DNA of 64,000 nt from Elusimicrobiota bacterium (GTDB taxonomy: Bacteria > Elusimicrobiota > Elusimicrobia > UBA1565 > UBA9628): the NCBI GenBank assembly GCA_016218575.1, contig JACRDN010000019.1:332302-396301 (forward strand), in the 5' to 3' direction. The notes below the pieces were generated by a model. It searched no databases, was not told the DNA's origin, and saw only the letters and a list, made by a program, of their open reading frames with translations. This document shows positions 4,549-40,122 of the stretch, one piece after another (position 1 is the stretch's first letter; every line of letters starts with the position of its first letter). A program made the translations under genes and the position numbers.

Positions 4549-4651
4549 GATCCGAATTATGGCATAGGCTAAAACCCCCCGCCGGGTCCTTGGGCCTACT
4601 TTTGCGCCGGCAAAGGGCCTAGGTCCGGTTGGGGCGAAAGGCCCAAAAAGG

Positions 4652-7252
4652 ATGGGACTTAGGACCCTGTCTTGGGCCTGGAACTTCCTGTATCCTAAGG
4701 GCATGAAAATTTTGTTGAGCCTCGTCGCCTTGATCCAAGCCAATATTTTATGGGCGGAAGGGATCCGATTTTTAGAGCCTTTAGCTCGATCGGCCGGAAC
4801 CGATGTCGAAGCCGTTAAAAAGAATCTGGACCAAGCCCCCCCAGTCCCGGGCTCTCCGGCGGAGCTCTTCGTCCTCAAGGACGTCGGAGACGGCAAATAC
4901 CAGCTTGAGATCAAGGAGAGCCAACTGGAAAAGGATTTCCTGCTTTCCGCCACGTTGGAAAAGGGCACGGCTGAAGAATGGTTTTTCACAGGCGTGCCTC
5001 TCAACACCTATCTGTGGTATTTCCGTCAGATCCCGGGCTCGAAGGTCCAATTTATCCGCCGCAACACCGCCTACAGGGCCTCGGCCGGCACCCCGGAGGA
5101 GAAAGCCGTCCAAAATTCCTTTTCCGACTCCATCATAGCCACGTTGCCTATTCTCGCAAAGGACAGCGCCAGGAAAACTCTGACTTTATCCGCCAATGAG
5201 CTTTTCCTCGCGGACCTGGAGGACCTCGCCGGCGCTCTGGAAGCGCAGTATGGGAAGGTTATGCTCTCCAACAAGGACTCATTTATCCAAAAACTTCTCG
5301 CTTTCCCCAAGAACCTGGAAGCCTCGGTCCAGCTTAATTTCAAGGGGGCAGGGGGAGGCTCGAAGACCTTGCCGGATGCTCGCACCATCACGATTTTACT
5401 CCATTACAGCCTGGCGGTCCTGCCCGAGCCAAGCGCCTACCAAATCAGGCGCTCGGACTCCCGGGTCGGCTATTTCACCACCAGCTACCAGAATTTCAGC
5501 GACCCCGACCTCAAGAACAGCGTCACGCCCCAGACCAATCTCATCCATCGCTGGAATCTGCGCAAAAAGGACCCTCCGGCCCCGGTTTCGGAAACGGCCA
5601 ACCCCATAGTCTTTTGGCTGGAGGAGGCCATACCTCAGGAGTTTCGACCCGCGATCAAGGCCGGGATTTTGGCCTGGAACGAGGCTTTCGAGAGCCTGGG
5701 CTTTCGCAATGCCGTCATCGTCAAAGAAGTGGACAAGGACATGAGCCCGGAGGAGCGCCGGACTTTTAATCCGGCCAATGCCGCCTACAACATGGTGCGC
5801 TGGTATATGGGGGGCTTCAGCGGCGCCGTGGGTCCCAGCCGGGCCCAGCCCCTCACCGGAGAGATATTGAGCGGCTCCATTTTGGTCAGCGACATCGTGA
5901 CCCGTTTTTTGTCCGATGAACTGGATCTCGTGGCCCTGGCCGATGGAGCCGGGACGAGAAAAAATCCCCACGAGGGATACATGGTTCAATCCGTGCTCAG
6001 CGCCGCGGCTGGGCTGGCCATGCTCGAGGCCAAAGGCCCCGTGTCCGAAGCCGAGAGAAAGCGCTTCAAATATCAGTTCCTGTCCCACATCATGGCCCAT
6101 GAGATGGGACATGTCCTGGGCCTGCGCCACAATTTCAAAGGAAGCCAGCTTCTTCCCCAAGCCAGGCTGGGCCAAGACGGCGAGCTGACCTCCTCGGTCA
6201 TGGATTACCTGCCGGTCAATATCGCGGCTCTAGGCAAGACTGAAGGGACCTATTACCAGACAAAGATCGGGCCTTATGACCGCTGGGCCATTGAATACGG
6301 CTACTCCGAACTTTCGGGAGACGCCGCCGGCCAAGAGAGGCAGCTTAAAGCCATAGCGGCCAAATCCGGTTATGACTCGCGCCTGGCCTATGGGACCGAC
6401 GAGGACACCCACGGCATGGACCCGGACACCCAGCGCTTTGACCTTGGCAAAGACACGCTCGCCTTCGCGCATTCGCGTGCCCAACTGGCCCGCGGGCTCT
6501 GGCGATCCCTCGCCTCCCTTAAACCCTCTCAGGAGCGCGATTATCCCCAGTTGAGGCGGCTCTTCATGATGGGCTACGCGGAGTACTTTGGGGCGGCCAA
6601 CGCCGTTCCTCCCCTCATAGGGGGTGTCAGGGCCAGCCGCGTCAAAGCGGGAGAAGGGGGCGCTCCCTTTAAGCCGGTCACGGCCCAAGAGCAAAGGGCG
6701 GCCCTCAAATTCCTGGATGAAGAAGTTTTCAAGGCCGAGTCTTTTTCCGTTCCCCCGGAGCTTCTGCTGCGCCTGGGGGTTGAGCAGACGGGAGGTGGGG
6801 GCTCATTACCAGTGAATTTGGACGGCATGGTCTTGGGGCTGCAGCAAAACGTGCTTAACAAACTCTACAGCCGGGCAAGTCTTGAGCGCCTGGCCCAGCG
6901 GGAGCTTCTGGCCGGAGCCGGCGATCGCCTCTCCCTCCGGGATGTTTTTGAGTTCCTCCGGCGGTCCATTTGGAGAGAGATCGAGGGGCCCAAAGCGGCG
7001 GCCATCCCGCTTTTCCGCCGCAATCTCCAGCGCCGGCATCTGGACACCCTCATGGCCGTGATGGACAACCAGTCCCTCCCGGGAGACGCCCGCACCTCCG
7101 CGCGAAGCGATCTAAGCCGTTTGCAGTCGGCGGCTGAGAAAGCCCTCAAGGATCCCAAACTGGGCTCCACCGAGCGTGCCCACCTGGAAGACATACTCGG
7201 CCGCATAAAAAGGCAGATCTCGAAGCACGAGCGGGCGATCAAAGCGGCATAA
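4652..7252 (+). CDS. Secreted zinc metalloprotease, HExxH class (DUF4953/DUF5117-like)
   Basis: It has an HEMGHVLGLRHNF zincin motif and a downstream SSVMDYLP...YDRWAIEYGY segment typical of this uncharacterised secreted metalloprotease family. A signal-peptide-like MKILLSLVALIQANILWA begins at the internal ATG at 4703. The protein is 866 aa. Confidence 0.65.
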   Translation: MGLRTLSWAWNFLYPKGMKILLSLVALIQANILWAEGIRFLEPLARSAGTDVEAVKKNLDQAPPVPGSPAELFVLKDVGDGKYQLEIKESQLEKDFLLSATLEKGTAEEWFFTGVPLNTYLWYFRQIPGSKVQFIRRNTAYRASAGTPEEKAVQNSFSDSIIATLPILAKDSARKTLTLSANELFLADLEDLAGALEAQYGKVMLSNKDSFIQKLLAFPKNLEASVQLNFKGAGGGSKTLPDARTITILLHYSLAVLPEPSAYQIRRSDSRVGYFTTSYQNFSDPDLKNSVTPQTNLIHRWNLRKKDPPAPVSETANPIVFWLEEAIPQEFRPAIKAGILAWNEAFESLGFRNAVIVKEVDKDMSPEERRTFNPANAAYNMVRWYMGGFSGAVGPSRAQPLTGEILSGSILVSDIVTRFLSDELDLVALADGAGTRKNPHEGYMVQSVLSAAAGLAMLEAKGPVSEAERKRFKYQFLSHIMAHEMGHVLGLRHNFKGSQLLPQARLGQDGELTSSVMDYLPVNIAALGKTEGTYYQTKIGPYDRWAIEYGYSELSGDAAGQERQLKAIAAKSGYDSRLAYGTDEDTHGMDPDTQRFDLGKDTLAFAHSRAQLARGLWRSLASLKPSQERDYPQLRRLFMMGYAEYFGAANAVPPLIGGVRASRVKAGEGGAPFKPVTAQEQRAALKFLDEEVFKAESFSVPPELLLRLGVEQTGGGGSLPVNLDGMVLGLQQNVLNKLYSRASLERLAQRELLAGAGDRLSLRDVFEFLRRSIWREIEGPKAAAIPLFRRNLQRRHLDTLMAVMDNQSLPGDARTSARSDLSRLQSAAEKALKDPKLGSTERAHLEDILGRIKRQISKHERAIKAA

Positions 7253-7308: not shown

Positions 7309-8037
7309 ATGCTCGAGCTTCGTCCGGCCAAGATCAGCGACCGCTTCATCGCCTACATCCTGGACGCGGCTCCGTTTGCCTGCGGATATATCCTCCACCG
7401 AGTCCCGCTTCTCTGGCTGGGACTGTATTTCTTCTACCAATTCCTAGGCAACTTGCTGGGGGCTACCATCGGCAAGCGCCTGATGGGGCTCCAGGTGCTG
7501 AGGCGCGACGGCCAGCCCTTGGGGGTTTTTAGAGCCCTTCTGCGCGCCTTGGGCTACGGGCTGAGCACCCCCTTCTTCAATTTTGGGTTTGTCGTGGCTT
7601 TCTTCCAGCCGGAATCCCGCACTTTGCACGATATGATTTCCGGCAGCCTTGTAGTGGAGGCCCGGGCCAAGAATCAAGGCGAGGCCGGGCTCCTTTTCCT
7701 GGCGGCAGCACTCCTCATCACGGCTCTTTTCGGCGGGACGATTTACTTATACAAGACCAACCCGACCCTTTCCGACATCCTCGCGGTGGAGAAGGCCCGG
7801 GATGGCCTCAAGATCCTGGCCCGGATCGAGGAGGAGTACAAGCGCAGTCATGGGGCCTATACTTCATCTTTGAGCGATCTCGCCCAGGCCAGCGGGGACG
7901 TGGAGGAGTTCAAGGCCGCCATGTCGAAGATTTTCGACCCCAACCTGTTCCAGATACAGGCCGGGAATCGGGGCTACCGGCTCTCCGCCGCGGCCAAGGA
8001 TCGCCGAAAGACCCGCGTCACTCTCGCGGGGCCTTAA
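7309..8037 (+). CDS. RDD-family membrane protein
   Basis: The N-terminus has the spacing pattern of the RDD domain: R...YILD, two to three TM helices, and LRRDGQP...RTLHDMISGSLVV. Confidence 0.6.
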   Translation: MLELRPAKISDRFIAYILDAAPFACGYILHRVPLLWLGLYFFYQFLGNLLGATIGKRLMGLQVLRRDGQPLGVFRALLRALGYGLSTPFFNFGFVVAFFQPESRTLHDMISGSLVVEARAKNQGEAGLLFLAAALLITALFGGTIYLYKTNPTLSDILAVEKARDGLKILARIEEEYKRSHGAYTSSLSDLAQASGDVEEFKAAMSKIFDPNLFQIQAGNRGYRLSAAAKDRRKTRVTLAGP

Positions 8038-9620
8038 AACTCAGCCAAGACCCAGCTTCCGAAAACATCGAGGCGCTTGATGTTTTTGGCGCCGACAAGG
8101 CTTATCACATGGGGCGCCTCGAAGCTCCGGAAAACCACGAAGGTCCGGTGTCCGGGAGCGGGAAGGGCGCGCAAGTCGTTGTCGTCGCCGAAGCGCCCGG
8201 TGTTTTCGGGGTAGCGCTTGGCGTAGTGGAGCTCGCCTGTCCAATTGACGAGCTTATCCACGGGCCTTCTCGCGTAGAAGGGCAGGCCGTGGAGGTATAC
8301 CCCGTAGGAGTAGACCTTGTCCTCCGGCCGGGCGCGCTCCGCGACGCTTGCCGCTAAGGAGCGCGCGCTCAGGGTCTCCGCGTTGCGGAGCAACGCGAAC
8401 AGAGAGAGTCCTCCCGCCAAGAATCCCGCCAAGGCCAAGGCGAGCGCCGGCTCCGATGTCGTGGCGGACCGGAGCAATCCTATTCCCAGCGAGGCTAAAA
8501 GCAATCCCGCCAGCGCCGCGTTGAGTCCGGCTAGGCCCGGAACGCAGGCCTTGATGAAAAGTATTGCCAGGGCCGCGGCCAGGAATAGCCCTCCCAGGGC
8601 CAGGGAAAGGCGTCTTGCCCAAACTGGCAGAGGTTTTTCAAGGGCCCAGGCCGCCAGAAGAGAGAGCTGCGGGAAAACTGGAAGAATGTAGGTGGCGAGC
8701 TTCGACTTGGATGCCGAGAAGAACGCGAAGATCAGCGTGCTCCAAATCGCCAGGGCTAAGGGCGCTCGCTCCCGGCTTTTCCAGACCCGGGTCCAGCCGG
8801 CCAAGACGGGCCCAATCCAGGGCAAAAGCCCCGCCGGCAGCACCAGGAAAAAGAAATAGAAAGGGCTGTTACGGTTGTATTTCTCCGTTAGAAATCTCTG
8901 GACATGCTGTTCCAAGAAGAAAACTTTAAGAAATCCCGGATGCCGGTGCTCCATGTAAAGAAACCACGGGGCCGCGATTCCTGTGAAAAGTGCTGCGCCC
9001 CGTGGAGAAATAAGGCGTTTGCCGTGCTGCCGTAGTTCGGGGAAAAGGATGAGCAGCGCCATCGCCCATGCCGTAGGAAATATTAAGGCGACTAGACCTT
9101 TGCTTAAAAACGCCAAGGCCGCGAAAACCCAAGCCAAGGGTGCTGCCCAAGACGCGTCTGCGGGTCTGAGCAGGCACCTTAGTATCATGGCCGAGCACCA
9201 CAAGAGGAAAACCGTCAAGGGCAGGTCGGGGGTGATGTAGTGGGAGAGGAAAAAATACAAGCCGGAGCTTCCCAGGACCAGCGCGGCCATGATTCCGGTC
9301 TGAGGGGAGAAGGCCCAGGAACCTAGCCAGACCAGGCCTAGCATCCCGGCGAGCGAGAGCAGGGCCAGGGGCAGGCGCGCGCTCGCCTCCGAGACGCCGA
9401 AAACCTTGTAGGAGGCGGCCCCCAGCCAATACCAAAGCGGGGGCTTTTCCACGTAGTCGAGGTAGTTGAGCCTGGGGGTGGCCCAGTCCCCGGACTCGGC
9501 CATCTCGCGTGGGATCTCGGCGTAGCGCGCGTCGTCTACCTCGACAAGAGGGTGGCTTAAGCTCCAAAAAGGGGAGCTCAAGGCGAGCACCAGCAAGACC
9601 CAGAGGGAGCGCGGGATCAA
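8034..9620 (-). CDS. GT-C glycosyltransferase, ArnT/PMT-like (GT39/GT83 family)
   Basis: The N-terminal motif DDARYAEIPREM...GDWATPRLNYLDYVEKPPL is the hallmark of ArnT/PMT-type lipid-linked sugar transferases, and the rest is polytopic. Its start overlaps the upstream stop by 4 bp. Confidence 0.75.
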   Translation of the reverse strand: MIPRSLWVLLVLALSSPFWSLSHPLVEVDDARYAEIPREMAESGDWATPRLNYLDYVEKPPLWYWLGAASYKVFGVSEASARLPLALLSLAGMLGLVWLGSWAFSPQTGIMAALVLGSSGLYFFLSHYITPDLPLTVFLLWCSAMILRCLLRPADASWAAPLAWVFAALAFLSKGLVALIFPTAWAMALLILFPELRQHGKRLISPRGAALFTGIAAPWFLYMEHRHPGFLKVFFLEQHVQRFLTEKYNRNSPFYFFFLVLPAGLLPWIGPVLAGWTRVWKSRERAPLALAIWSTLIFAFFSASKSKLATYILPVFPQLSLLAAWALEKPLPVWARRLSLALGGLFLAAALAILFIKACVPGLAGLNAALAGLLLASLGIGLLRSATTSEPALALALAGFLAGGLSLFALLRNAETLSARSLAASVAERARPEDKVYSYGVYLHGLPFYARRPVDKLVNWTGELHYAKRYPENTGRFGDDNDLRALPAPGHRTFVVFRSFEAPHVISLVGAKNIKRLDVFGSWVLAEF

Positions 9621-10648
9621 ATCTTGAGCACGACCTTGCCGAAGTGCTTTTTCTCGGCCAGGTATTCATGGGCCCGCCGAGCCTCTTCCAATGGGAAGAC
9701 GCGGTCAATCACGGGGATGAGCTTCTTCTCCCCCACCAGGCGCGCCACCTCCCGCATCTCGCGCGAATTGCCCATGGTGGAGCCGAGGATCTGGAGCTGG
9801 CGGCCGAAAATATAGCGCAGATCCAAAGTGACGCCGTGTCCGCTCGTGGCCCCGCAGGTGACGAGCCGACCTCCGTTCTTGAGGCTCTTGAGCGCGGCCT
9901 CGAAAACGGCCGGGCCCACGTGCTCGAAGGCGATGTCGGCCCTTCGCCCCTCGGTGAGCCTGATGGTTTCCTTTAGGATGTCTCCCGGCGGCGAGTGGAT
10001 AACGGCCCACGCTCCCAAGGCCTTGGCGCGCGCGAGCTTCTCCTGGGAGGTCGAGACGGCGATTGCCTTAGCGCCGGCGAGCCTCGCTATCTGCACCGCG
10101 GCCACCCCCACTCCGCTTCCCGCTCCGAGCACCAGGACGTATTGGCCGGGGCCGCAGCCGCCCACGGTCATGAGCATGCGCCAGGCCGTGAGAAAGGTGA
10201 GGGGATAGGCCGCGCCTTCTTCAAAGCTGAGGCTCTCGGGCAGGGGCAAAAGGGCCTGCTCGGGGACGCTCAGCAGCTCCGCGTAGCCCCCCGGCCCCGC
10301 TTGCGCGCCGATGATCCCGTACTGGGAGCATAAATTCTCTTCTCCGGCCAGGCAGCGGGGGCATTTAAGGCAGGAGCGCCCAGGGTTTACCGAAACCCTT
10401 TGTCCCACGCGGGCCTCGCGGATTGCCGGCCCCAAGGCGACGATTTCCCCCGAGACGTCGCAGCCGAGAATATGCGGCGGCTTGATTTTGTAAGCCGGGA
10501 TGCCGTCGCGCACCCAAAGGTCCAAATGGTTCAAGGCGCAGGCCCGGACTCTGAGCAGGACTTCTCCCGCGCCCGGCTCGGGGTCGGGAACCTCGGCCGC
10601 CTTTAGGACCTCGGGCCCCCCGAAGCTCTCCAGTACCATGGCTCGCAT
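9617..10648 (-). CDS. Zn-dependent alcohol dehydrogenase / quinone oxidoreductase (MDR superfamily)
   Basis: It has GCDVSGEIVALG, CxxCxxC (CLKCPRCLAGEENLC), a Rossmann motif LVLGAGSGVG and a typical MDR C-terminus. Confidence 0.8.
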   Translation of the reverse strand: MRAMVLESFGGPEVLKAAEVPDPEPGAGEVLLRVRACALNHLDLWVRDGIPAYKIKPPHILGCDVSGEIVALGPAIREARVGQRVSVNPGRSCLKCPRCLAGEENLCSQYGIIGAQAGPGGYAELLSVPEQALLPLPESLSFEEGAAYPLTFLTAWRMLMTVGGCGPGQYVLVLGAGSGVGVAAVQIARLAGAKAIAVSTSQEKLARAKALGAWAVIHSPPGDILKETIRLTEGRRADIAFEHVGPAVFEAALKSLKNGGRLVTCGATSGHGVTLDLRYIFGRQLQILGSTMGNSREMREVARLVGEKKLIPVIDRVFPLEEARRAHEYLAEKKHFGKVVLKI

Positions 10649-10705
10649 GGGGGCAGTATATAAAATTCAGGCAATTCGGTGACTGTCACCAAATTACGAC
10701 GACTA

Positions 10706-11641
10706 CTACTCGCCGAATTTTTCCTTGAGGAGACGCAGGAACTTGTCGCGCTCGGATTCGCCGCCGCTGGGAAGGAAGGAGCCTAATTGCCGGGCCATGA
10801 CGGCCATCTGGGCGCGCAGTTGGGCCGCGGCCGAGGCTTCCTGGATATACTTCCGAAGTTCTTGGGAGCGCTGCTCCAAGGCCTTGAGGAGCTCCGCCCT
10901 CTCGGCTTGCAGGGAAGCGATGACTCGCTCTTGGGAAGAGGAGTGCTCGGCCGGGGACTGGGAGAGCTCTCTGGCTTCGGCCTTGAATTCCTTCAGGACT
11001 GCGGTTTGTTCGGCCATGCGGCTTTCGAGTCGAGAGAGAGTTTGGCCGAGGCCGGCCTTAAATTCTTCAAATTTCCGCGCGAGACTCGCCAGTTCCGATC
11101 CCAGATCCAGCTTGTCCTGGAGGGATCCCCGTTCCTTGGCCAAGGCCATGGCCCCGGCGATCTCGGCCTTGAGCGCGGCCTGCTCCTGCGCCAGAGTGGC
11201 CTGGGCGGCGCTCGCGGCCTGGGATTGGGCCTCCCTCTGGCTCAAGGATTCTTTTATTAAGGAGAGCCAGCTTTGGTGCATCTCGTCCAGGCGACGCTCC
11301 AAAGCGTCCACGCGCCCCCGGGCGTGGGCCTTGGTCTCCTCGCTTTCCCTCTCCAGTTTCTCGCGCCTGAGCTGGTCGGTGAGGGACTTGAGATGGGTTT
11401 CGACCTCTTGGCGTATGGCGTCCTGCTGTTTGAGAAGGTTTTGGGCCGACTGGGCGCGCTCGCGCTCCACCGCCAGCTCCCCCTCCAGGGCCTCCAAGCG
11501 CCTTTCCAGGAAGGACATCATCGGGGTCAAGGGCACGTAGGGAGGCTGGGGCGAGATGAGTTCGGCCGGAGGCGGGAGGGGAGGTTGCGATCGAGGTGGT
11601 GCCGGGATCTGGGGCTCGTCGCTGGGGTTGGACATGGTCAT
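10706..11641 (-). CDS. Proline-rich N-terminus plus long coiled-coil protein (hypothetical)
   Basis: The N-terminus is PQIPAPPRSQPPLPPPAELISPQPPYVPL, followed by about 250 aa of heptad-like, E/R/A/L/Q-rich sequence. Its start overlaps the upstream barrel gene by 4 bp. The antisense ORFs in this region have nonsense composition. Confidence 0.6.
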   Translation of the reverse strand: MTMSNPSDEPQIPAPPRSQPPLPPPAELISPQPPYVPLTPMMSFLERRLEALEGELAVERERAQSAQNLLKQQDAIRQEVETHLKSLTDQLRREKLERESEETKAHARGRVDALERRLDEMHQSWLSLIKESLSQREAQSQAASAAQATLAQEQAALKAEIAGAMALAKERGSLQDKLDLGSELASLARKFEEFKAGLGQTLSRLESRMAEQTAVLKEFKAEARELSQSPAEHSSSQERVIASLQAERAELLKALEQRSQELRKYIQEASAAAQLRAQMAVMARQLGSFLPSGGESERDKFLRLLKEKFGE

Positions 11642-12618
11642 CTCTCGCGGTTGCGCCGGGAGGTCTTCGCCGGCAGATTGAAGCTGATCGAAAATCTGTG
11701 AATCTGGTCTCCCAGGATTCCGAAGGGAGAGAAGGCATAATCGAAGCTCCAGTCCCCCACCGAGACGCCCATGCCCGCGCTGAACGTGGTGGCAAACCCC
11801 AGGCTCTGCATGGTGAGGGTGTTGAGCCCTCCCCGCACGGCGGCCTTGATGTTGCGGTCCACCTCTAGCTTGTATTCCATGCCCAAGGCCGCGTGCGGGG
11901 TATTATTGGCCGGCATGATCCCTTCGAGGGAAAGAGTGAGCGCGTTGTTGGGATGGACGGCCGTTCCCAGGCGCGCCCGGAAGGGCAGGGTGTCTCGTAC
12001 CTGGTCGAATTTCTGGCCCTGGCCCAGGTTCTGGGCCACGAAGGCCACGTCGTAGATGTAGCGGCCGCTGTAGAAGCGGCTCAATATCCCTATGTCCCCG
12101 CCGAAGCCGTCTCCGTGCAGGAGGTAGTCCGAGTGGATCCAGCGCCCGGCCACTCCCATGGAAATGTCCATCTCGCTGTCGGAGAGGTCGTAGATGGCCT
12201 GCCCCCAGCCGCCCTCGATCACGTAGTCGCGGGGATGGAATGTTCCCACGGTCCTGCCTGCTAGATCCGTGTGGTCTATCTCGCCGATGTCTCGGTGGCG
12301 CAGGCCCGCGGCGAGCACCCCGTTGTCGGAGACCCTCTTGGCCACGGCCGCGGATTGGTAGGTGATGTCCTGCACGTAGCGCGAGTACATGAAGGTGGCC
12401 GAGATCCTGGGGATTTTGGCCAGGCCCGCCGGGTTCCAATACAGGGAGTAGGCGTCGTCTGTCACGGCCGAGTAGGCGCCGCCCATGGCGATGCCGCGCG
12501 CGCCCTGGTCGAAGAGGAGGAACTCAGAGCCGGTGGTTCCCACCGCGGCCTTGCTGAAATCCGAGGCGCGCGCCACCGGCGGTAAAGCCATCAGCAGGGC
12601 GAGGGCGGCAGTTCTCAC
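11638..12618 (-). CDS. Outer-membrane beta-barrel, FadL/PorV-like (UPF0164-type)
   Basis: It has a signal peptide, then GARGIAMGGAYSAVTDDAYSLYWNPAGLA, alternating beta-strand periodicity, and a C-terminal RFSISFNL ending in an aromatic/Leu beta-signal. It sits 4 bp-overlapped directly downstream of the CTD-bearing giant gene. Confidence 0.65.
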   Translation of the reverse strand: MRTAALALLMALPPVARASDFSKAAVGTTGSEFLLFDQGARGIAMGGAYSAVTDDAYSLYWNPAGLAKIPRISATFMYSRYVQDITYQSAAVAKRVSDNGVLAAGLRHRDIGEIDHTDLAGRTVGTFHPRDYVIEGGWGQAIYDLSDSEMDISMGVAGRWIHSDYLLHGDGFGGDIGILSRFYSGRYIYDVAFVAQNLGQGQKFDQVRDTLPFRARLGTAVHPNNALTLSLEGIMPANNTPHAALGMEYKLEVDRNIKAAVRGGLNTLTMQSLGFATTFSAGMGVSVGDWSFDYAFSPFGILGDQIHRFSISFNLPAKTSRRNRER

Positions 12619-15600
12619 CGGAGCACCACCACTTTATGGACCTTTTTTTGCCCGTTGAACTCCAAAGTCGCCAAGTACACCCCGCTCGCCGCCGGCCGGC
12701 CGTAGAGATTCACTCCGCCCCAGATCATGAGTCCAGAGCCGTTGGCTTGGCCCTCAAAGACCAATTCCCCCCTCAAAGTGAACACCCGCACCCTGGCCCC
12801 GGCCGGCATCTGCGAGAAGGTGACGTAGCCATGGCCTCGGTTCGGCATGAAGGGGTTCGGGAAAACCCGAGCCTGCTCCACCGAGGTGGAGGGGCTCACC
12901 CGCACCACCTGGAATTGGGAGAAATGGTTGAGCTGGACCGTCATGCGGTGGTTGACGCTGTCCACCACGGTCTGCAGGGGCACGCAGGCTCCGGAGTCAT
13001 CCACCCGCATGAACGTGGCTTCGCCGGCTGGGATGGGCACCGCCGCGAGCTCCGCATCGGCGAAGGAGAAGGTCAGGAAAACCGGGCCGACCGGCTGCAT
13101 CGTGGGCCGTGGGGTGATGGAAAGCCCGATATTGGCCCCGCCGGCTCCGCAGGGAGAGGGCGGGACCGTGAAAGAGGAGACGGTCACGAAGACGTCCGAG
13201 GCAAAGGACTTGGCCGGCACCGTGAGCTTGACGTAGCGGGAGTTGCCGAGGGTTCCTTCGATTATGTTGTTCTGCGTCGTGAGGACCGTGCCACCCAGGG
13301 ACCCGGCCGGGACTCCCCCGTTGAAGGGTGCCGTGGTGACGGTGTTGGAGAAGGCGCTTGCCAGGCCGCTTAAGTTCTGGGCCGCCACGCGTATGGAGAT
13401 CGTCGTGCCGGTCAGGAGGCTCGAGAGGACCAAGGCGGTCTGGTTCGACTGCTTGGAGAAGGCGAGCGGCGTCGAGACGTGCGTCACGAAGTTATCCGTG
13501 GAATAGGTCACCTGGTAGGTGGCCGAGGAGGAGTTGTTGTTGGAGTTCCAGGAAACCGAGATGGAGGATGGCGTGGTCCCCAGGACCGTCAGGCTGGTCG
13601 GGGGATTGGCCAAGGTCGAGGTGGTGCCTAGGACGAGATAGCTGGAGGCCACGCTATCGCCATTAAGCGACCGGACCTTCACGTCGAAGGGCATGGCGGG
13701 AGAGGCCAGGTCGGCGACGCTGGCGGAGAATCCCGTCGTGGTGATGGTGCTCACCACGGCGTCTCCCGAGGAGACGATCATCTCGAAGGTGGTGCCGGCT
13801 GGGTTCTCGTTGGTGTTCCATATGCCCGTAAACGAGCCCGTGGTGACGTTCAGTATGGGCGGGCTTACGGCCAAGGGGATGGCCGACAAGGTGAAGGTGG
13901 TGGCAGAGGCCGATAAGGGCCCCTCCCCGGCCTGGGTCACCGCGCTAACGTACACGGAGCGGACCGAGTTCGTGGAGAGCCCTGTGTCTTGGAAGACGTT
14001 GGTGTTGGGGGTGGCGATCACCGCACCCGTCGTCGAATTATAGACCTTGTAGAAATTGACTCCCCCCGGATCCACCCAGCTCCACTGTATGCTCGTGGTG
14101 GTGAGCCCCGTTCCGGCCAACCCCGCCACGGGGGTCCTGGTTTGTGTGGCGACGACCACGCTGAAGTTGGAGGCGGTGCCGGCGCCGTTGAAGGATCTCA
14201 GGCGCAGATAATAGGTCGTGTTCGACTGCAGTGGAGCAAGAATTACGTTGTCCGTGGTGAGCCCCGAGAGGCTAGGCACCGGGGTCGAGAAGGAGAGCGC
14301 GAAGTTGTCCGTCGAGAGCGACACCTCGTAGATGGTCCCCTGGCTGTTGCCGTTGACGTTCCATGAGAGAAGAAGGCTTGTGGATGTTACCGAGGTCACG
14401 GCCACGCTCACGGGGACGGTCGAAAGCGTGAAGAAGGTGGCCGATGTGGTCAACGGGCCGTCGCCCGTGAGGGTGTAGGCCCCCACCAGGAGCTGGGCCG
14501 TGGCGTTGGGGGCTAGGCCCCGCTGGGTGTAGGTCGGGGTGGCCGCGCCCACGGTCGAGATGAAGACCCCGGTGGTGGCGGAGAAGACCTCGTAGCCGTC
14601 CATCGTGGTCTGGCCTTGGATGTCGGTCCAACTCCAAGTGATGGTCGTGGAGGTGATGGAAACCGTGTTGGCGGTCACGCTGGTCGGGCCCACCGTGGGC
14701 TTGGGGGGGCCGGCTTGGACGAGCACGCTGTCGGAGAATTGGGAGTTGGAGGCGGAGCGCAGGTGGTACCATCCGTAAGGAAGGAAGGTCCCGCCGGGGG
14801 AGGGCAGGGGGCTCTGCGCCGCCGAGGGCATGAGCACCGTCATGGAGGAATCTGTCTTGGTCCAGAGGTTTGGATCGGGGGTCTTGCTGTAGACCCTCGT
14901 GGACAGGTCGAGGGCGAAGCCCCCGGAGCCTTGGGAGCTCGTGCCTCCGGAACCGTCCACCGCCTGCAAAACCGCGCGAGGATGGAAATGGGAGGAGTTC
15001 CCGCTGGCGGGCCCCCCGCTCGAGGCCTCCGTGATTCCCTGGAAATTCCGCCCGCTCAAAGTGACGAAGTCCCCTCGGTTGAAGGGAGAAAGGTCCACCG
15101 CGGTGATGGTGGACTGCCTGGCGCTGGGAGGGGCCCCGAGGCTCGCGGCGTCCGGCGAGCCCGTGAAGTAGAGTCGCTCGGCGCTCGACAAGAAGGCGGC
15201 CCCGCTATAGCCTCCGATGGCGTAAAGATTCCCGTCCTTGGCCAGGCTCGTCGTGTGGTAGCCCCTGGAGGCGGACATGTTCCCGCTCACCTGCCAGGAC
15301 GAGGTCGCCACGTCGAAGGTCTCGCAGCTGTTCAAGGTGTTGCCCAAGGCCTGCGCGCCGCCCGCGATGATGACGTTGCCGTTGGGCAGCAAGGTCGCCG
15401 TGTGGCTGAAGCGCGGCGTGTTCAAGGGCCTCCCCGGGACCAAGGCCCCGGTGTCGGTCCATGTGTTGGCCACGGGATCATATATTAAGGAATAGGCGGT
15501 TTCCCCGAAGCCGTCGTTGCCCCCGGTCAAGAGGACCCGGCCGTCCATGAGCAAGGTGGCTGAGTGGGAATGCGAGCGCTTGGCGCTGCCAGCGCAGGGA

Positions 15601-18299
15601 TCTGCCGCGTTATTGAGGCAGGTGGCCATGGTCCAGGCGCCGGTGACGGGGTTGTAGATCTCATTGCGCGCGAGCACCCCGCTCGCGTTGACCCCTCCGC
15701 TCACCAGGATGCGTCCGTCCTGCAGGAGGGTGGACGTGTGCAGGGCCCGGGCCAGGTTCATGCTGCTGATGGGCCGCCAGGCCCCGGCCGTGGAGTAGTA
15801 GATCTCGGCCTCGTTATGGTAGGTCCCCCCGTTGTAGCCGCCGGTCGCCAGGACGTTCCCATCGGCCATGAGGACCGCCGCATGGTTGTCCCGGGCCGTG
15901 TTCATGGACTGGGTGGGAACCCAGATCCCGGTGGCGGGGTAGTAGATCTCGGCTCCCGCGGTGGCCCCGGTGCTCGTCGCGTTGGTGGTGAAGCCCCCAG
16001 AGACCAGGACCCGGCCGTTGGGGAGCAAGGTGGCCGTGTGAAGATCGCGGACCTCCAGCATCGGCCCGGTTGCGGAGAAGCGCGCGGTCACCGGATCGAA
16101 AAGCTCGGCCGAGCGCAAGACGTTGGGGCCGTTGGACCCGCCCGCCACCAAAATATTTCCATTGGGGAGCATGGTGGTGGTGTGGTTTCCCCTAGAGTTG
16201 GTCATGCCGGCGCTGTTGGCCGTCCAGGCTCCGAGCCTGGGGATGACGCGCGCCGATCCCCGGGGCGAGGAGGAGGTGCAGTCGGTCTGGGAGGTTTGGG
16301 AGTCGGTGCAGCTCAGTCCCCCCAGGAGGGAGATGTCTCCGCTGGGGGTGAGAGTGGCGCTATGCCCGTGCTTCTGGCTGCCGAACCCCTGCACCGTGAA
16401 GCTCCAGGCGTTGCTTTGGGGGTTGAATTTGGTCAGATCGCTGAACATCATGCTGCGTATGACCACCGTGGCGACGTCCACCGTGAAATTGGTTTGGCTT
16501 AGGTTCACGCGGCTGGCCACGAACTTGAGCGTGCCGGAAAGCCCCGTGACCACCCGGCCGGCCACGTTGAAGGGAGTGACCTGGTTCGTGGTCGTGCTCA
16601 CGTCCACCGTACCCCTCAAATTGATGAAGGATGCGTTGAAGGAGAACTCGGCTCCCCCCGCCCCGTCGTCCACCACCGTGGGAGCCCCCGGGATCTGGGT
16701 GAAGCCGTCGGTGAAGGAGAGGGTCGCGATGTTGGTGATGGAGAGGCTGCCCGCGGTGAGGCGCAGGCTGCCGCTGCTGATGGCGGCTCCCAGGAAAATC
16801 TTCGAAATCGGGACGGTCAAGGTCCCGGTCAGTATGCTCGCGGTGAGTATCGTCCCGGGCGAGTTGTCCACGGTCATGGGGGAAGCGGTGAACCCCACCG
16901 TGCTGTTGGCGATCAAGGTGAAATTGTCGGGGCTTACGGTGACGTCTGGGGTGAAATACTGGCCCTGCATCGGAGACAGCGAGACGGTGCGGCTGATCTG
17001 ACCGCAGGTCCCGGCTACAGGATCGCAGAAGACCCTGGTTCCGGCGAGACTCGCGCGCAGGCCCACCGCCGGGTCCGCGGTGCCGGCCCGGAGAATGGCC
17101 TGGCCCGTGACTCCCGAGTAGGTAAAGTTGACGATGGGCGAGGACATAAGGACCTCTCCCTGTTCTATGATCCCGGTGACCGGGACGGAGAGCGGGAAGT
17201 TGAGGTTGACGGCAAGATACCCGCCTGTCACGTTCATGGTGGACAGCACGTTGCCGAAGGAGCCGGTGACCGAGGAGCCGTCCACCAAGGTCGCCGAGGC
17301 GTTGACGAAGGTGGTGGTGATGTTCCCGAGGCCTCCGAACATGGCCAACTGTCCGTCGTTTTGAAGCGTCATGCTGTGGCCGAGGCTGCGCACCAGCATG
17401 GACGGGGCGGGCACCATGGAATCGGACACGGGGTCGTAGAGCTCCGTGGTTTGGAGGATTCCCTTGTTGGCCAGGGAGTCCCTGCCGTTGAAGCCCCCGG
17501 TGATGAGGACCTTGCCGTTGCCCATGAGGTTGGCGGTGTGATAGGCCCTTTGCTGGATGAGGTTCTTTCCGGCCTTGAAAGTCCCGGAAGTGGGATTGTA
17601 TATCTCGGTCGTGACGAGGTAGGGGTAGGTGGCGTTGTTGGGATCCCAGCCGCCGGCGAGGAAAACCCTGCCGTCGGGAAGCAAGGTCGAGGTGTGGAGG
17701 GACCGGGCCGAGGCCAGGGAGCCCGTGGCGGAGAAGGAGCCGAAGGCTCCCCCGCAGGTAAACGAGGGGTTGGTGGGCGCGTTGTAGAGCTCGCAGGAGC
17801 TGTTCATGGCGCCAGAGCCTCTTTGTCCGCCGCAGACCAGGACCTTGCCGGTCTTGAGCAAGGTCGCGGTGTGGTTGAACCTTCCGTTGACCTCGGTCAT
17901 GGCCATGGAGGCGGACCAGCAGTTCTGGGACGGGTCGAAGACCACGGCGTCGGTGCGTACCCCCCCGGAGTTCACGCCGCCGACGATCAGGACCTGGCCC
18001 GTGGGAAGCATGGTCGCGGTGTGGGAGGCCCGGGCGACCGCCATGGCGGTCGCGTCCAAAAAGTCGTTTTGGCGCTCCAGGGAGATCTGGACGCCGGTCA
18101 AGGCCGTGGTGAGGTCGCCCGGGGCCGTCATTCCGCCCACGACGAGGATGTTGCCGTCGGGCAATAAAGTCGAGGTGTGGGCGAATCTAGAGGTAAACGC
18201 GACGGCGCCGGCCCTGGAGGCGCTCAATCCCAATGAAAAGCCCAAGCCGAGGGCCGTCCATAAAAATGCCGAGCGCCAAGTCGTCGGGCGAAGATGCAT
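12615..18299 (-). CDS. Giant secreted/surface protein (1894 aa): two Kelch beta-propellers, Fn3-like repeats and a T9SS-type C-terminal sorting domain
   Basis: It has a signal peptide (MHLRPTTWRSAFLWTALGLGFSLGLSASRAGA). There are at least 12 Kelch blades with the recurring HTxTLLPxGxVLVxGG pattern, in two clusters. At least five Fn3-like repeats follow (TSLLLSWNVNG...YEV, IQWSWVDPGGVNFYKVY, ISVSWNSNNN...YQVTY). The C-terminus VFPNPF...GVYLATLEFNGQKKVHKVVVLR matches the Por-secretion-tail / CTD type-A pattern. Confidence 0.85.
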   Translation of the reverse strand: MHLRPTTWRSAFLWTALGLGFSLGLSASRAGAVAFTSRFAHTSTLLPDGNILVVGGMTAPGDLTTALTGVQISLERQNDFLDATAMAVARASHTATMLPTGQVLIVGGVNSGGVRTDAVVFDPSQNCWSASMAMTEVNGRFNHTATLLKTGKVLVCGGQRGSGAMNSSCELYNAPTNPSFTCGGAFGSFSATGSLASARSLHTSTLLPDGRVFLAGGWDPNNATYPYLVTTEIYNPTSGTFKAGKNLIQQRAYHTANLMGNGKVLITGGFNGRDSLANKGILQTTELYDPVSDSMVPAPSMLVRSLGHSMTLQNDGQLAMFGGLGNITTTFVNASATLVDGSSVTGSFGNVLSTMNVTGGYLAVNLNFPLSVPVTGIIEQGEVLMSSPIVNFTYSGVTGQAILRAGTADPAVGLRASLAGTRVFCDPVAGTCGQISRTVSLSPMQGQYFTPDVTVSPDNFTLIANSTVGFTASPMTVDNSPGTILTASILTGTLTVPISKIFLGAAISSGSLRLTAGSLSITNIATLSFTDGFTQIPGAPTVVDDGAGGAEFSFNASFINLRGTVDVSTTTNQVTPFNVAGRVVTGLSGTLKFVASRVNLSQTNFTVDVATVVIRSMMFSDLTKFNPQSNAWSFTVQGFGSQKHGHSATLTPSGDISLLGGLSCTDSQTSQTDCTSSSPRGSARVIPRLGAWTANSAGMTNSRGNHTTTMLPNGNILVAGGSNGPNVLRSAELFDPVTARFSATGPMLEVRDLHTATLLPNGRVLVSGGFTTNATSTGATAGAEIYYPATGIWVPTQSMNTARDNHAAVLMADGNVLATGGYNGGTYHNEAEIYYSTAGAWRPISSMNLARALHTSTLLQDGRILVSGGVNASGVLARNEIYNPVTGAWTMATCLNNAADPCAGSAKRSHSHSATLLMDGRVLLTGGNDGFGETAYSLIYDPVANTWTDTGALVPGRPLNTPRFSHTATLLPNGNVIIAGGAQALGNTLNSCETFDVATSSWQVSGNMSASRGYHTTSLAKDGNLYAIGGYSGAAFLSSAERLYFTGSPDAASLGAPPSARQSTITAVDLSPFNRGDFVTLSGRNFQGITEASSGGPASGNSSHFHPRAVLQAVDGSGGTSSQGSGGFALDLSTRVYSKTPDPNLWTKTDSSMTVLMPSAAQSPLPSPGGTFLPYGWYHLRSASNSQFSDSVLVQAGPPKPTVGPTSVTANTVSITSTTITWSWTDIQGQTTMDGYEVFSATTGVFISTVGAATPTYTQRGLAPNATAQLLVGAYTLTGDGPLTTSATFFTLSTVPVSVAVTSVTSTSLLLSWNVNGNSQGTIYEVSLSTDNFALSFSTPVPSLSGLTTDNVILAPLQSNTTYYLRLRSFNGAGTASNFSVVVATQTRTPVAGLAGTGLTTTSIQWSWVDPGGVNFYKVYNSTTGAVIATPNTNVFQDTGLSTNSVRSVYVSAVTQAGEGPLSASATTFTLSAIPLAVSPPILNVTTGSFTGIWNTNENPAGTTFEMIVSSGDAVVSTITTTGFSASVADLASPAMPFDVKVRSLNGDSVASSYLVLGTTSTLANPPTSLTVLGTTPSSISVSWNSNNNSSSATYQVTYSTDNFVTHVSTPLAFSKQSNQTALVLSSLLTGTTISIRVAAQNLSGLASAFSNTVTTAPFNGGVPAGSLGGTVLTTQNNIIEGTLGNSRYVKLTVPAKSFASDVFVTVSSFTVPPSPCGAGGANIGLSITPRPTMQPVGPVFLTFSFADAELAAVPIPAGEATFMRVDDSGACVPLQTVVDSVNHRMTVQLNHFSQFQVVRVSPSTSVEQARVFPNPFMPNRGHGYVTFSQMPAGARVRVFTLRGELVFEGQANGSGLMIWGGVNLYGRPAASGVYLATLEFNGQKKVHKVVVLR

Positions 18300-18366: not shown

Positions 18367-19038
18367 TTACTGCGCGACGGTCACGGCCGAGGCGTTGCGC
18401 TCGGTGCGGGCGTTTTCGGGATCGAGGGTCTTGATGCCGTCCACGAGATAGAGGTAGCGGTAGGTGGCGGGAGTCAAATAGAGGGTCAGGGTCCACATCC
18501 CGTCGCTTTCCTGGGTCATGGCCTTGCGGCCGCCGCGAATGAAGCCTCCCCAGAGCTCCACGTTCTTGGCTCCGGGAGCCTTGATCTGGAATTTGACGGC
18601 CTTGGCCTTGACCTTGGCCGATGGCTGGGGCGCAGCCAGTGCTGCTGCTGGGATGGGAGCGACTGCCCCGGCTGGAGTGGTCGCTTTGGCCGCCTCCTGG
18701 AGCTTGGGCGCCTCGCGGGGCTTGGGCGCTTCCTGCACGAAAGCGGGATTGTTGGCGGGCTTGGCCGGGGCTGCCTGCGTGGGCTCCGCGGGCTTTGCCG
18801 CGGGCGGGGCGGGCTCTTCAGCGAGCTTGGGCGCCGGCGGGGCCGGCTTGGCCCTATGGACCTGTACTGGAGGCGGCGGGAGTTGGGGAGGAGACTGCCA
18901 ATGCTGGTAGAGCTTGGCCGCCAGGGCTCCGCCGAATATGATGACAAGAAAAGCGTCCAGGACCAAAAGCACGGCCCACAGCTTTTGATTGCGGGACGAA
19001 TCTCCTTCGCTTTCGCCTGCGCCGAGGCCCGATGTCAT
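18367..19038 (-). CDS. Membrane-anchored Pro/Ala-rich protein with a C-terminal CBM48/AMPK-beta-like (E-set) domain
   Basis: It has a single TM (LWAVLLVLDAFLVIIFGGALAA), a (P/A/K)-rich linker, and a C-terminal KFQIKAPGAKNVELWGGF...DGMWTLTLYL...YRYLYLVDG that resembles a glycogen-binding/isoamylase N-terminal beta-sandwich. Confidence 0.55.
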   Translation of the reverse strand: MTSGLGAGESEGDSSRNQKLWAVLLVLDAFLVIIFGGALAAKLYQHWQSPPQLPPPPVQVHRAKPAPPAPKLAEEPAPPAAKPAEPTQAAPAKPANNPAFVQEAPKPREAPKLQEAAKATTPAGAVAPIPAAALAAPQPSAKVKAKAVKFQIKAPGAKNVELWGGFIRGGRKAMTQESDGMWTLTLYLTPATYRYLYLVDGIKTLDPENARTERNASAVTVAQ

Positions 19039-19050
19039 CTGGCAATGATT

Positions 19051-19578
19051 CTAGCGCAATCCTCCAACCCTGTCAACCAAGCCTTGGGCGCGCAAAACCA
19101 GCTCCGCGGCCTCCCTGACCGCGGCCTCTCCCCCTCGGCTGCGGGTGACCCAGTGGGCCTTGGCCTTGACCTCGGGCCTGGCGTTGGGCACGGCCACGGC
19201 CAGGCCCGCGCGCTCCAAGACCGGGATGTCGGGCCAATCATCCCCCATGTAGAGGACTTCCTCGGCCTTGACCCCGGCCTCCTTCAGGATTTGATCAAAA
19301 ACATTCAGCTTGTCGAGGCGGCCTTGATGGATGTAGGAGACCTTGACGAGCTTCAGGCGTTCCTCCATGCCCCGGGAATTTCGCCCGCTGATGACCCCGG
19401 TCTTGATCCCGCATTGGGCGAGCCAGCCGAGAGCGATGCTGTCCTGGGCGTTGACCCCCTTGAGCTCCACCAGATTCCCGGAGGTGTCCACGAAGTGGTA
19501 GATGAGGCCGTCGGTGAGCACTCCGTCGATGTCGAGCAGGAAGACCTTGACGCGCCGGGCCCGCTCCTTGATCGTCAA
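19051..19578 (-). CDS. kdsC: 3-deoxy-D-manno-octulosonate-8-phosphate phosphatase (HAD family)
   Basis: FLLDIDGVLTDG (DxDGVLTDG motif), GVISGR, MGDDWPDIPV. Size (175 aa) and motifs fit KdsC. Confidence 0.85.
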   Translation of the reverse strand: MTIKERARRVKVFLLDIDGVLTDGLIYHFVDTSGNLVELKGVNAQDSIALGWLAQCGIKTGVISGRNSRGMEERLKLVKVSYIHQGRLDKLNVFDQILKEAGVKAEEVLYMGDDWPDIPVLERAGLAVAVPNARPEVKAKAHWVTRSRGGEAAVREAAELVLRAQGLVDRVGGLR

Positions 19579-26331: not shown

Positions 26332-27096
26332 TCATAAACGCCCGAGCTCCTTCTTGAGCTGATTGGGGAGCTGTTGGATGATAGCCCAATGGCTCTTAGG
26401 CAGGAAAGCCTTGAGTTCGTTGTAGAGGAACTTCTTGTCGACCGCCTCAAGCCTTTCTAAGACCTGCTTGCGCCGCGCCGCGATCGACTTCCTTTCCCCC
26501 ATCGGCTTGCGCAGGATGAAGTAGAGGTCGTAGAAGTCCCGTGGCTTGGCGCGCGAGAGAAGTGCGTCGACCTTCTCGTCAACGAGCAATTTCTCCGGCA
26601 GGCCGTAGACGTTGTAGTTCGGCACGAGGCCCGACGTAACCACGGAGAGCTCTCCCTTAAGGGGCTTCTGGCGCGTGGAGGCCTGCAGGAGGATCTCGAT
26701 CTCCCACGGTCCCATGGGGCCGCGCACGATGCCGAAGTAGCCGCCGCTCGTGGGCTTGGACTCGACGAGCGCCAGGCCTGAGATCTCCTGGGCGACGCGC
26801 TCGGCCGTCCGCTCGATCACGGCTTGCGTCTTGTGAAACGGCATGGCCGCGGTGAAGTCGAGGTCCTCGGAGAAGCGCGGGCTCTGGTAGACGATTCGCA
26901 GGGAGGTCCCGCCCTTGAACATAAGGCCGTCCGAGGCTGGGTCCGCGTACAGATGGGAGAGGAATACGTTCTGCGCGTACTCGCGCGCGACATTTTCATC
27001 GGTCGTGTGGAATTTTACCGCGAGCTGCTTGATCTCATCTGCCGATAGCATGGCCCACCCAGGAGAGGAAGGTCTTAGGCTTGAATAGGCGCGCAT
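26332..27096 (-). CDS. AbiEii/AbiGii-family nucleotidyltransferase toxin (DUF1814, type IV TA)
   Basis: LMFKGGTSL...RFSEDLDF is the NTase signature of AbiEii. A possible shorter start lies at 27051 (MLSADEIK). It is paired with the upstream AbiEi. Confidence 0.75.
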   Translation of the reverse strand: MRAYSSLRPSSPGWAMLSADEIKQLAVKFHTTDENVAREYAQNVFLSHLYADPASDGLMFKGGTSLRIVYQSPRFSEDLDFTAAMPFHKTQAVIERTAERVAQEISGLALVESKPTSGGYFGIVRGPMGPWEIEILLQASTRQKPLKGELSVVTSGLVPNYNVYGLPEKLLVDEKVDALLSRAKPRDFYDLYFILRKPMGERKSIAARRKQVLERLEAVDKKFLYNELKAFLPKSHWAIIQQLPNQLKKELGRL

Positions 27097-40112: not shown

Positions 40113-40122
40113 TATTCGAGGA

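Follow-up and report, generated by a model that had tools for sequence, protein, structure and literature searches.

A probable PorZ/PorQ-like cassette pairing a giant Kelch/Fn3 protein with an adjacent outer-membrane barrel in Elusimicrobia

The type IX secretion system's (T9SS) C-terminal domain (CTD) signal and the PorV-family barrels are treated in the literature as a machine confined to the Bacteroidota and their relatives of the Fibrobacterota-Chlorobiota-Bacteroidota (FCB) group. In the closest described system, the CTD of PorZ is retained and binds PorQ, the PorQ-PorZ complex forms without PorU or PorV, and "cognate PorV-like barrels" are a proposed means of shielding such CTDs (PMC10947112, PMC10202324). 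As for the CTDs of type B, the cargo is anchored by its own PorP/SprF-like barrel, encoded next to it, and a PorE-like tether is sometimes encoded nearby (PMC9143113). According to a review, T9SS genes are absent outside the FCB phyla, and species without a T9SS have no CTD proteins (PMC11285876). Our literature search found nothing connecting Elusimicrobia with T9SS, PorV or CTDs. Here we analyse a stretch of 64 kb (the window) of the 551-kb contig JACRDN010000019.1, which belongs to a metagenome-assembled genome of the Elusimicrobia and encodes a giant Kelch/Fn3 protein (the cargo) that ends in a T9SS-type CTD and is directly followed by a PorV/PorQ-family outer-membrane barrel. We propose, with a probability of about 0.6, that the two form a PorZ/PorQ-like cargo-plus-barrel anchoring cassette within a unit of four genes, and that the dehydrogenase and glycosyltransferase genes which come next constitute a second unit.

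The cargo, its C-terminal domain and the adjacent barrel

MBI5631158.1, "PorV/PorQ family protein [Elusimicrobia bacterium]", has the same sequence as the window barrel, whose approximately 600 homologues at 57-71% identity are nearly all from Elusimicrobia. Scanning one genome per GTDB species yielded 80 loci, of which 49 are orthologous species-representative loci, and these loci were compared with the window proteins using tblastn and purpose-built hidden Markov models (HMMs). The locus sampling is centred on barrels, and the denominators of the synteny counts are the loci among the 49 orthologous ones that have enough flank to be assessed. When the last 200 residues of the cargo were used as query in a word-indexed search for homologues, a single match came back, so that this search could not serve for an unbiased sampling of CTD proteins.

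The cargo starts with a Sec signal peptide (about residues 1-32), followed by two Kelch propellers (about 35-325 and about 700-1065) and four to five Fn3 domains (about 1205-1700); the stretches 331-660 and 1701-1810 match no family. Kelch/Fn3 arrays of such size are typical of surface or adhesin proteins. The T9SS-type CTD that a sequence-only reading of this DNA had assigned to the cargo was confirmed, as the last 99 residues taken alone score 28.9 bits on TIGR04183 (cut-off 23). The full-length cargo scores 20.4 bits, under the same cut-off, and the CTD ends at the very last residue, 1894. Among the 43 CTDs collected from the cassettes, 39 match TIGR04183 (Por_Secre_tail; E <= 0.01), all 43 match the C-terminus of the PorZ model, and a single one matches TIGR04131, the type B model. 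As a single sequence, the window CTD gave chance-level matches only to PDB sequences, and a profile of the 43 CTDs was required. The best match of this profile is PorZ (5m11_A, residues 667-758; E 4.6e-15), the values being 1e-5 for the NucA CTD, 1e-4 for PorU and 0.7 for RgpB. The alignment to the crystallised PorZ CTD has almost no gaps and lends indirect support to a putative Ig-like 3+4 beta-sandwich fold of the domain. The CTD alignment displays the motifs PNP, VRIFT..GELV, W.G.N..G..VASGVYL and a terminal K..V.R, and its W.G.N..G..VASGVY segment aligns without gap to PorZ and with gaps to the NucA CTD. The likeness to PorZ is limited to this domain, since the 47 bits that the cargo reaches on the PorZ model NF052228 (cut-off 260) come from model positions 664-756, the CTD only.

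The barrel scores 157.2 bits on the PorV/PorQ family model NF033709 over residues 28-315 (cut-off 90) and 43.9 bits on the Pfam PorV model PF19572 (cut-off 27), so that the PorV-type barrel expected next to the cargo is indeed there. The sequence-only reading had also named FadL and UPF0164 models to be tried; both Toluene_X (FadL; 16.8 bits) and UPF0164 remained sub-threshold, and no PorP/SprF match was listed for the barrel in the family scans. The barrel profile matches PorV of Flavobacterium johnsoniae (6h3i_F, E 7e-13), and the top PDB matches retrieved by Foldseek with the AlphaFold2 (AF2) model of the barrel are PorV 8gl6_F and 6h3i_F (E 3e-11, TM-score 0.62), with FadL and TodX next. 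The model has a pLDDT of 63 and a pTM of 0.64, a confidence at which the strand count is unreliable. We class the barrel, from its family and equivalog scores, as a member of the PorV/PorQ family that is an orthologue of neither PorQ nor PorV.

A CTD-ending giant lies directly 5' of the barrel in 47 of the 47 assessable loci, and a start codon is available at the position of the 4-bp overlap in most orthologous loci as well as in several distant cassettes. Over all Elusimicrobia-type loci (1.03 Mb), a CTD partner accompanies 62 of 67 barrels, and of the 64 CTD open reading frames (ORFs) 61 are paired with a barrel; in the loci from other, mostly FCB, phyla (0.22 Mb), 13 of 22 CTD ORFs are barrel-paired and nine are not. 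This CTD/barrel adjacency is far beyond chance. It extends to distant barrels of 27-38% identity, found in Elusimicrobia paralogues, Lindowbacteria, Aerophobetes, Zixibacteria, KSB1, Marinimicrobia and Ignavibacteria, which almost always have an adjacent CTD-ending ORF, usually upstream and often with a 4-bp overlap. These distant cassettes have other kinds of cargo, a BamB/PQQ-type propeller and NHL repeats among them, and the TIGR04183 scores of their CTDs, 25-37 bits, exceed the cut-off. We considered that they could be ordinary porU-porV pairs and rejected it: six large CTD proteins were compared with the PorU sortase, and outside the CTD not one of them resembles it. Finally, the identity matrices of CTDs and barrels are correlated (Mantel r 0.91 for 65 cassettes and 0.82 for the 19 distant ones; 0 of 999 permutations reach either value), which fits units that diverged together.

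Variants of this arrangement were also observed. Locus L085 (3-1801, 4901-10909) carries two CTD-plus-barrel pairs about 3 kb apart, and L066 of Zixibacteria (3-3210) one CTD ORF followed by two barrels. In L063 (3-11971), a 2,902-aa CTD protein and a 142-aa CTD fragment stand about 1 kb before the barrel. The order is reversed, with the barrel first and the CTD protein immediately behind it, in L070 (9818-14011; 939 aa) and L071 (9845-14300; 1,050 aa). The window itself has a second PorV/PorQ-family barrel at 56634-57530 (+), which scores 148 bits on NF033709, 92 on PorQ and 60 on PorV. It has no adjoining CTD-ending ORF and is thereby among the few unpaired barrels of the Elusimicrobia loci. 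Its neighbours are a 209-aa ORF of no family before it (55948-56577, +) and, after it, an ORF (57470-59029, +) for a 519-aa protein with C-terminal tetratricopeptide repeats (PilW/Tgl-like).

Transcription units and the other genes of the window

The sequence-only reading had described five minus-strand genes joined into one operon, namely those of the cargo, the barrel, a Pro-rich coiled-coil protein, a dehydrogenase and an ArnT-like glycosyltransferase of the GT-C class. The ORF list bears out their positions and strand, the three 4-bp overlaps (GTGA between cargo and barrel, ATGA between barrel and coiled-coil gene, and TTGA between dehydrogenase and GT-C) and the sole gap of 57 bp (10649-10705), between the coiled-coil gene and the dehydrogenase. 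That reading mentioned neither the gene upstream of the cargo (18367-19038), nor the hairpin and -10 box within the 57-bp gap, nor the barrel at 56634-57530. All features of the locus are collected in the table.

Features of the cassette locus, in order of transcription (window positions)
Feature	Position	Strand	Basis or remark
Promoter TTGACA-17-TAGAAT, sigma-70-type	19048..19076	-	Consensus scan, 11/12 match; proposed start of unit 1
Bitopic membrane protein (CBM48-like), 223 aa	18367..19038	-	First gene of proposed unit 1; annotated "hypothetical", HY921_09790
Cargo, 1,894 aa	12615..18299	-	ORF and Kelch/Fn3 family matches
CTD (residues 1810-1894), T9SS type A, PorZ-like	12618..12872	-	TIGR04183 and PorZ profile match
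Outer-membrane beta-barrel, 326 aa, signal peptide	11638..12618	-	NF033709; GTG start overlaps cargo stop
Pro-rich N-terminus plus coiled coil, 311 aa	10706..11641	-	No signal peptide, no transmembrane segment
Hairpin, 12-bp stem, then short U-run	10671..10697	-	dG -18.2 kcal/mol, z -3.0; terminator-like end of proposed unit 1
-10 box TATACT	10655..10660	-	6 nt before dehydrogenase ATG; proposed unit 2 promoter
Zinc-type medium-chain dehydrogenase/reductase, 343 aa, cytoplasmic	9617..10648	-	ADH_N and ADH_zinc_N
Polytopic GT-C glycosyltransferase, ArnT-like (PMT_2), 528 aa	8034..9620	-	TTG start overlaps dehydrogenase stop

The transcription units were called by phylogenetic footprinting combined with hairpin prediction. 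The ATG of the gene upstream of the cargo, which encodes a CBM48-like membrane protein, lies 9 nt downstream of the -10 box of a near-consensus promoter, and the kdsC stop codon (19051-19053) is the TAG of the TAGAAT -10 box. The motif TTGAC(A/G)-17-TAGAAT is found at the equivalent site in 26 of 31 related loci, where the start codon follows the -10 box at a distance of 6-15 nt. The -10 motif is rare before the remaining genes of this unit and before KdsC, being present ahead of the giant in 4 of 39 loci, the barrel in 0 of 49, the coiled-coil gene in 1 of 42 and KdsC in 0 of 33. No significant structure was seen in the gap that separates the CBM48-like gene from the giant (z +0.25), and given this together with the four occurrences in 39 loci we do not propose a separate promoter for the giant gene. 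At the other end, the hairpin in the 57-bp gap is folded equally well by one of 200 shuffled sequences, and several relatives have strong hairpins at the same 3' junction of the coiled-coil gene (-57, -51 and -38 kcal/mol in L005, L027 and L029, respectively). A TAGAAT-type box stands 6-10 nt before the dehydrogenase start in 20 of 26 relatives, and nine loci have a -10 box ahead of GT-C, the dehydrogenase being missing from eight of these nine. From the distribution of the motif and from the hairpin we infer two units, one made up of the CBM48-like, giant, barrel and coiled-coil genes and the other of the dehydrogenase and GT-C genes. The first most likely begins at the conserved promoter before the CBM48-fold membrane protein, one gene upstream of the start previously read. 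In this lineage, promoters appear to take the form TTGAC(A/G)-17-TAGAAT or just TAGAAT, and the -10 box to be separated from the start codon by only 6-15 nt. Start codons so near the -10 box imply leaderless or near-leaderless mRNAs for several genes, and we propose that the unit 2 box would yield such an mRNA.

Hence the five genes are probably not one operon. In addition to the hairpin and the conserved -10 box in the 57-bp gap, the members are not all co-conserved: the dehydrogenase is present in 11 of 24 related loci and GT-C within 8 kb of the barrel in 19 of 24, unrelated genes occupying 2.8-3.8 kb separate the coiled-coil gene from GT-C in L036, L040, L048 and L049, and paralogous cassettes lack both enzymes. 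The coiled-coil gene, the dehydrogenase and GT-C are all absent from L038, L039 and L041, where the upstream genes are present. Synteny with the CTD cargo, which had been anticipated for barrel and GT-C alike, was found for the barrel in every assessable locus and for GT-C in 19 of 24, which resembles the counts of the flanking housekeeping genes (KdsC, 27 of 32; Tal/PGI, 25 of 30; RDD, 17 of 22). In other words, GT-C is conserved no better than unrelated flanking genes, and the dehydrogenase less. The inserted genes were examined as possible extra glycosylation genes and discarded, as they are heterogeneous and none resembles the module studied here; by inspection, one is C-N hydrolase-like, one response-regulator/histidine-kinase-like, and the others have no recognisable match.

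The CBM48-like gene behaves differently from the two enzyme genes. By a scripted criterion it lies directly 5' of the giant in 32 of 34 loci, and also in L053, before a shortened giant. HMM searches show that it is kept in L036, L043, L048 and L049, from which Tal/PGI and KdsC are absent; L040 has it too, with an upstream flank too short to judge Tal/PGI and KdsC. This persistence indicates that it is bound to the cassette more tightly than the dehydrogenase or GT-C. After a single transmembrane helix (about residues 17-44), which would anchor it in the inner membrane, the protein continues with a disordered Pro/Ala-rich spacer some 100 residues long, presumably periplasmic, and ends in a beta-sandwich (145-223) modelled by AF2 with pLDDT >90. 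With an rmsd of 1.4-2.4 A, Foldseek matches this sandwich to the CBM48 domains of SEX4, feruloyl esterase and AMPK-beta, its profile matches the 6rzn CBM48 (E 2e-8), and the Pfam AMPK1_CBM score (25.1 bits) is just below the cut-off.

The coiled-coil gene is found 3' of the barrel in 37 of 43 loci. Its product matched no family in the family-model scans and is probably cytoplasmic, since it has no signal peptide. In relatives the protein is about 527 aa long, with a conserved Pro-rich N-terminus followed by TPMMDFFQRRLEALEREL and a conserved C-terminal end KDEMISMLSATFQNMLKK, which is gone from the window copy. The invariant core of the predicted unit 1 is the giant cargo and the barrel. As an aside, a small ORF of 165-207 aa occurs 3' of the coiled-coil gene in L036 (12553-13086), L040 (8707-9330) and L043 (13767-14264), with 45-70% mutual identity, and is not in the window.

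Regarding unit 2, the earlier assignments of both enzymes hold. The dehydrogenase carries ADH_N and ADH_zinc_N, and its closest solved structure is 2eih (E 2e-102). The GT-C enzyme scores 52 bits on PMT_2 (cut-off 26), matches ArnT 5ezm over residues 7-466 (E 4e-48), has multiple hydrophobic segments of the transmembrane type, and reaches 154 bits on the ArnT equivalog (cut-off 567). ArnT-type enzymes are known to act on lipid A, not on proteins. The suggestion that GT-C attaches glycans to the cargo is not sustained, as the gene is conserved no better than its flanks and is linked to the cassette by collinearity only. The two enzyme genes appear to be separately transcribed, collinear neighbours of the cassette, and unit 2 would most likely modify an envelope lipid or glycan independently of it. 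The neighbourhood has a lipopolysaccharide (LPS) flavour, with an MsbA-like ABC exporter at 146-2524 (+) and beyond the window start, KdsC (19051-19578) and the ArnT-like GT-C. The public call of this exporter on a Logan contig is of 1,623 aa with two ABC_membrane/ABC_tran halves, a fused double transporter.

A few other features of the window are worth recording. The GC content drops to 0.55-0.60 at 26332-28976, where an AbiEii toxin/AbiEi antitoxin pair (26332-27096, 27035-27625) adjoins tRNA-Gly(CCC) (27844-27917) and a 359-aa ORF without Pfam match overlaps the end of this tRNA gene; the segment may be a small island that inserted there. A DUF5117/DUF4953 Met-zincin gene (4652-7252, +) lies between RDD and MFS genes, which directly follow each other in related loci. 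It was not found in any related locus and, on this comparison, appears to be a genome-specific insertion. Part of it is overlapped by the long MFS ORF (2521-5007), for which the public call gives 612 aa. Five ORFs of 629, 545, 153, 569 and 231 aa, located at 33126-35015 (-), 48223-50318 (+) and 50872-53301 (-), have a coding-like codon bias and no Pfam family. Lastly, an Opp/Dpp-type ABC peptide-uptake operon (38197-47859, -) has two SBP_bac_5 binding proteins, and the gene of an OPT-family oligopeptide transporter (43617-45824) sits between its binding-protein and ATPase genes.

Proposed anchoring mechanism and alternative explanations

By analogy with PorQ, which holds PorZ, and with the SprF/PorP-like barrels, which hold type B CTD proteins in Bacteroidota, we propose that the barrel would be the cognate receptor of this one CTD, binding the domain in its folded and uncleaved state and so keeping the giant protein at the outer membrane. 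The overlapping stop and start codons would favour the making of both partners together. More speculatively, the CBM48-fold protein may link the complex with a glycan of the periplasm or with the inner membrane, in a loosely PorE-like manner.

Several points weigh against this proposal. CTD-barrel binding, CTD retention and surface exposure are all proposed on indirect evidence, and the barrel falls below the equivalog cut-offs of both PorQ (NF033711, 97.3 bits against 220) and PorV (NF033710, 75.6 against 250), with a structural model of moderate confidence only (pLDDT 63). The Mantel correlation would also be expected from the shared descent of linked genes. The boundaries of the transcripts are drawn from conserved motifs and from a predicted hairpin whose U-run is short, and GT-C, being within 8 kb of the barrel in 19 of 24 loci, may have a loose functional link with the cassette. 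As for the coiled-coil protein, its lack of a signal peptide leaves its tie to an envelope complex unexplained, and the window copy is shortened, without the conserved C-terminal stretch of about 200 residues, so that the gene may be impaired in this genome.

Four other explanations deserve to be weighed against the anchoring cassette. The most serious, which we nevertheless find doubtful, is that the genome has neither SprA/Sov nor PorKLMN, and that the cassette, perhaps with the help of the CBM48-fold and coiled-coil proteins, places one large protein on the outer membrane independently of T9SS, by another translocon or an unknown mechanism. The host is outside the FCB group, to which the review cited above restricts T9SS genes (PMC11285876), and our literature search linked Elusimicrobia neither to T9SS nor to PorV. 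No T9SS core gene was found among about 45 ORFs scanned in the 64-kb window, whose remaining genes are housekeeping ones, and the near-complete barrel pairing of the CTD ORFs of Elusimicrobia (61 of 64) differs from the FCB loci, where 9 of 22 are unpaired. However, the window represents only 64 kb of a 551-kb contig, so that core genes may lie elsewhere, and the pairing was counted in loci sampled around barrels. Furthermore, the CTD has retained motifs linked, in Bacteroidota, with recognition by the translocon, and PorV-type or 14-strand FadL-type barrels are not known to translocate proteins. The absence of a translocon from the window is also compatible with a giant that stays periplasmic, tethered to the periplasmic face of the barrel, where it would have a structural role or organise the envelope together with the CBM48-fold and coiled-coil proteins; the unit does encode a periplasm-spanning membrane protein, and SprB and SprF could, in principle, interact on either face of the membrane (PMC9143113). 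We regard this as unlikely, because barrel-bound PorZ and SprB are on the cell surface according to the literature and because the Kelch/Fn3 array has the size that is typical of surface proteins.

The single five-gene operon would export the giant, hand it over to the barrel and glycosylate it or anchor it to a glycan by means of GT-C, for which the dehydrogenase would provide an intermediate, either a sugar or a lipid. It agrees with the common strand, with the three overlaps, with the frequent proximity of GT-C and with the presence of KdsC and the MsbA-like exporter nearby, and it has a precedent in Porphyromonas gingivalis, where T9SS cargo is linked to anionic LPS (A-LPS) and PorV/LptO is tied to LPS remodelling. 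We think it quite improbable in view of the hairpin and -10 box, the patchy dehydrogenase, a GT-C gene that behaves like the flanking genes, the inserts and the paralogous cassettes devoid of both genes, knowing besides that the dehydrogenase is a generic cytoplasmic enzyme and that ArnT-type enzymes modify lipid A. Least credible of all, and in our opinion highly improbable, is a FadL/TodX-type channel for the uptake of a hydrophobic substrate that the dehydrogenase would oxidise, the adjacency of the giant being incidental. The Toluene_X score, the presence of FadL and TodX among the fold matches and a dehydrogenase located two genes downstream speak for it, but the PorV/PorQ cut-off is passed, PorV is the top match in both sequence and fold, the dehydrogenase has its own promoter motif and is missing in 13 of 24 loci, and the CTD adjacency and overlap persist across phyla. 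We thus rejected uptake coupled to the dehydrogenase on family scores and synteny.

Whichever the export route, the two-gene unit is conserved across dozens of Elusimicrobia species and occurs in other candidate phyla as well. If a T9SS is present, the known range of this system is extended, and the rule of one cargo for one cognate barrel covers the type A/PorZ-like CTDs too. If there is none, the pairing of CTD and barrel works without a translocon, which bears on the evolution of the attachment complex and on the capture of PorZ by PorQ. Taking this line further, we tentatively consider the possibility that Elusimicrobia lack the T9SS translocon and motor, and that the CTD-barrel pair is an autonomous, modular cassette for surface display whose recognition principle is older and wider than type IX secretion. 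The unit would then reach from the cytoplasm, where the coiled-coil protein resides, through the inner membrane and periplasm (CBM48 tether) and the outer membrane (barrel) to the cell surface (giant), and, if this is true, PorZ-PorQ and PorU-PorV of Bacteroidota descend from such cassettes. Independently of these questions, TTGAC(A/G)-17-TAGAAT with start codons 6-15 nt downstream offers a testable picture of promoter use in an uncultured lineage.

Comparison with described systems

Similarly to PorZ-PorQ of P. gingivalis, the window pair combines a propeller protein bearing a type A-like CTD with a PorV-family barrel (14-strand in PorQ); the best PDB match of the CTD is that of PorZ, and the barrel scores higher on PorQ than on PorV (97 versus 76 bits). 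By contrast, the window propellers are of the Kelch type, without match to PorZ outside the CTD, the cargo is 2.5 times longer and has an Fn3 array, and the PorQ equivalog cut-off is missed. In addition, the two genes adjoin here with overlapping stop and start codons, in an Elusimicrobia host that has many paralogous cassettes with varied cargo, whereas PorU was not found in the 64-kb window and a role in A-LPS delivery like that of PorZ-PorQ is not supported.

SprB-SprF of F. johnsoniae and PG1035-PorP-PorE share with our cassette the principle of one cargo with one dedicated, adjacent FadL-family barrel. In these systems the barrels anchor an uncleaved CTD, and the CBM48-fold protein could parallel the PorE-like tether. 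They differ in that the window CTD is type A/PorZ-like, that the barrel belongs to the PorV/PorQ family, and that there is no PorE-like lipoprotein with an OmpA domain. As for the PorV shuttle of F. johnsoniae (SprA complexes 6H3I/8GL6), PorV is the best sequence-profile and fold match of the window barrel and binds type A CTDs. Yet PorV serves many cargos and is not encoded beside each of them, unlike the present arrangement of one CTD gene per barrel, and the window barrel is below the PorV equivalog cut-off (76 versus 250 bits). Concerning ArnT (GT83, the lipid A 4-amino-4-deoxy-L-arabinose transferase), the GT-C enzyme of unit 2 matches the Cupriavidus metallidurans structure 5ezm and passes PMT_2, but stays under the equivalog cut-off (154 versus 567 bits) and has no arn biosynthesis genes beside it.

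Together, these comparisons separate what is known from what is new. The cargo and the barrel are members of the TIGR04183 and NF033709 families, and the databases already name the individual proteins. Judged by their scores and alignments, they are classed neither as orthologues of PorZ, PorQ or PorV nor as a type B/PorP pair. The new elements are the phylum, the cassette organisation in which the gene of a type A/PorZ-like CTD protein adjoins that of its barrel with overlapping stop and start codons, the large number of these cassettes and the unit of four genes with a CBM48-fold protein.

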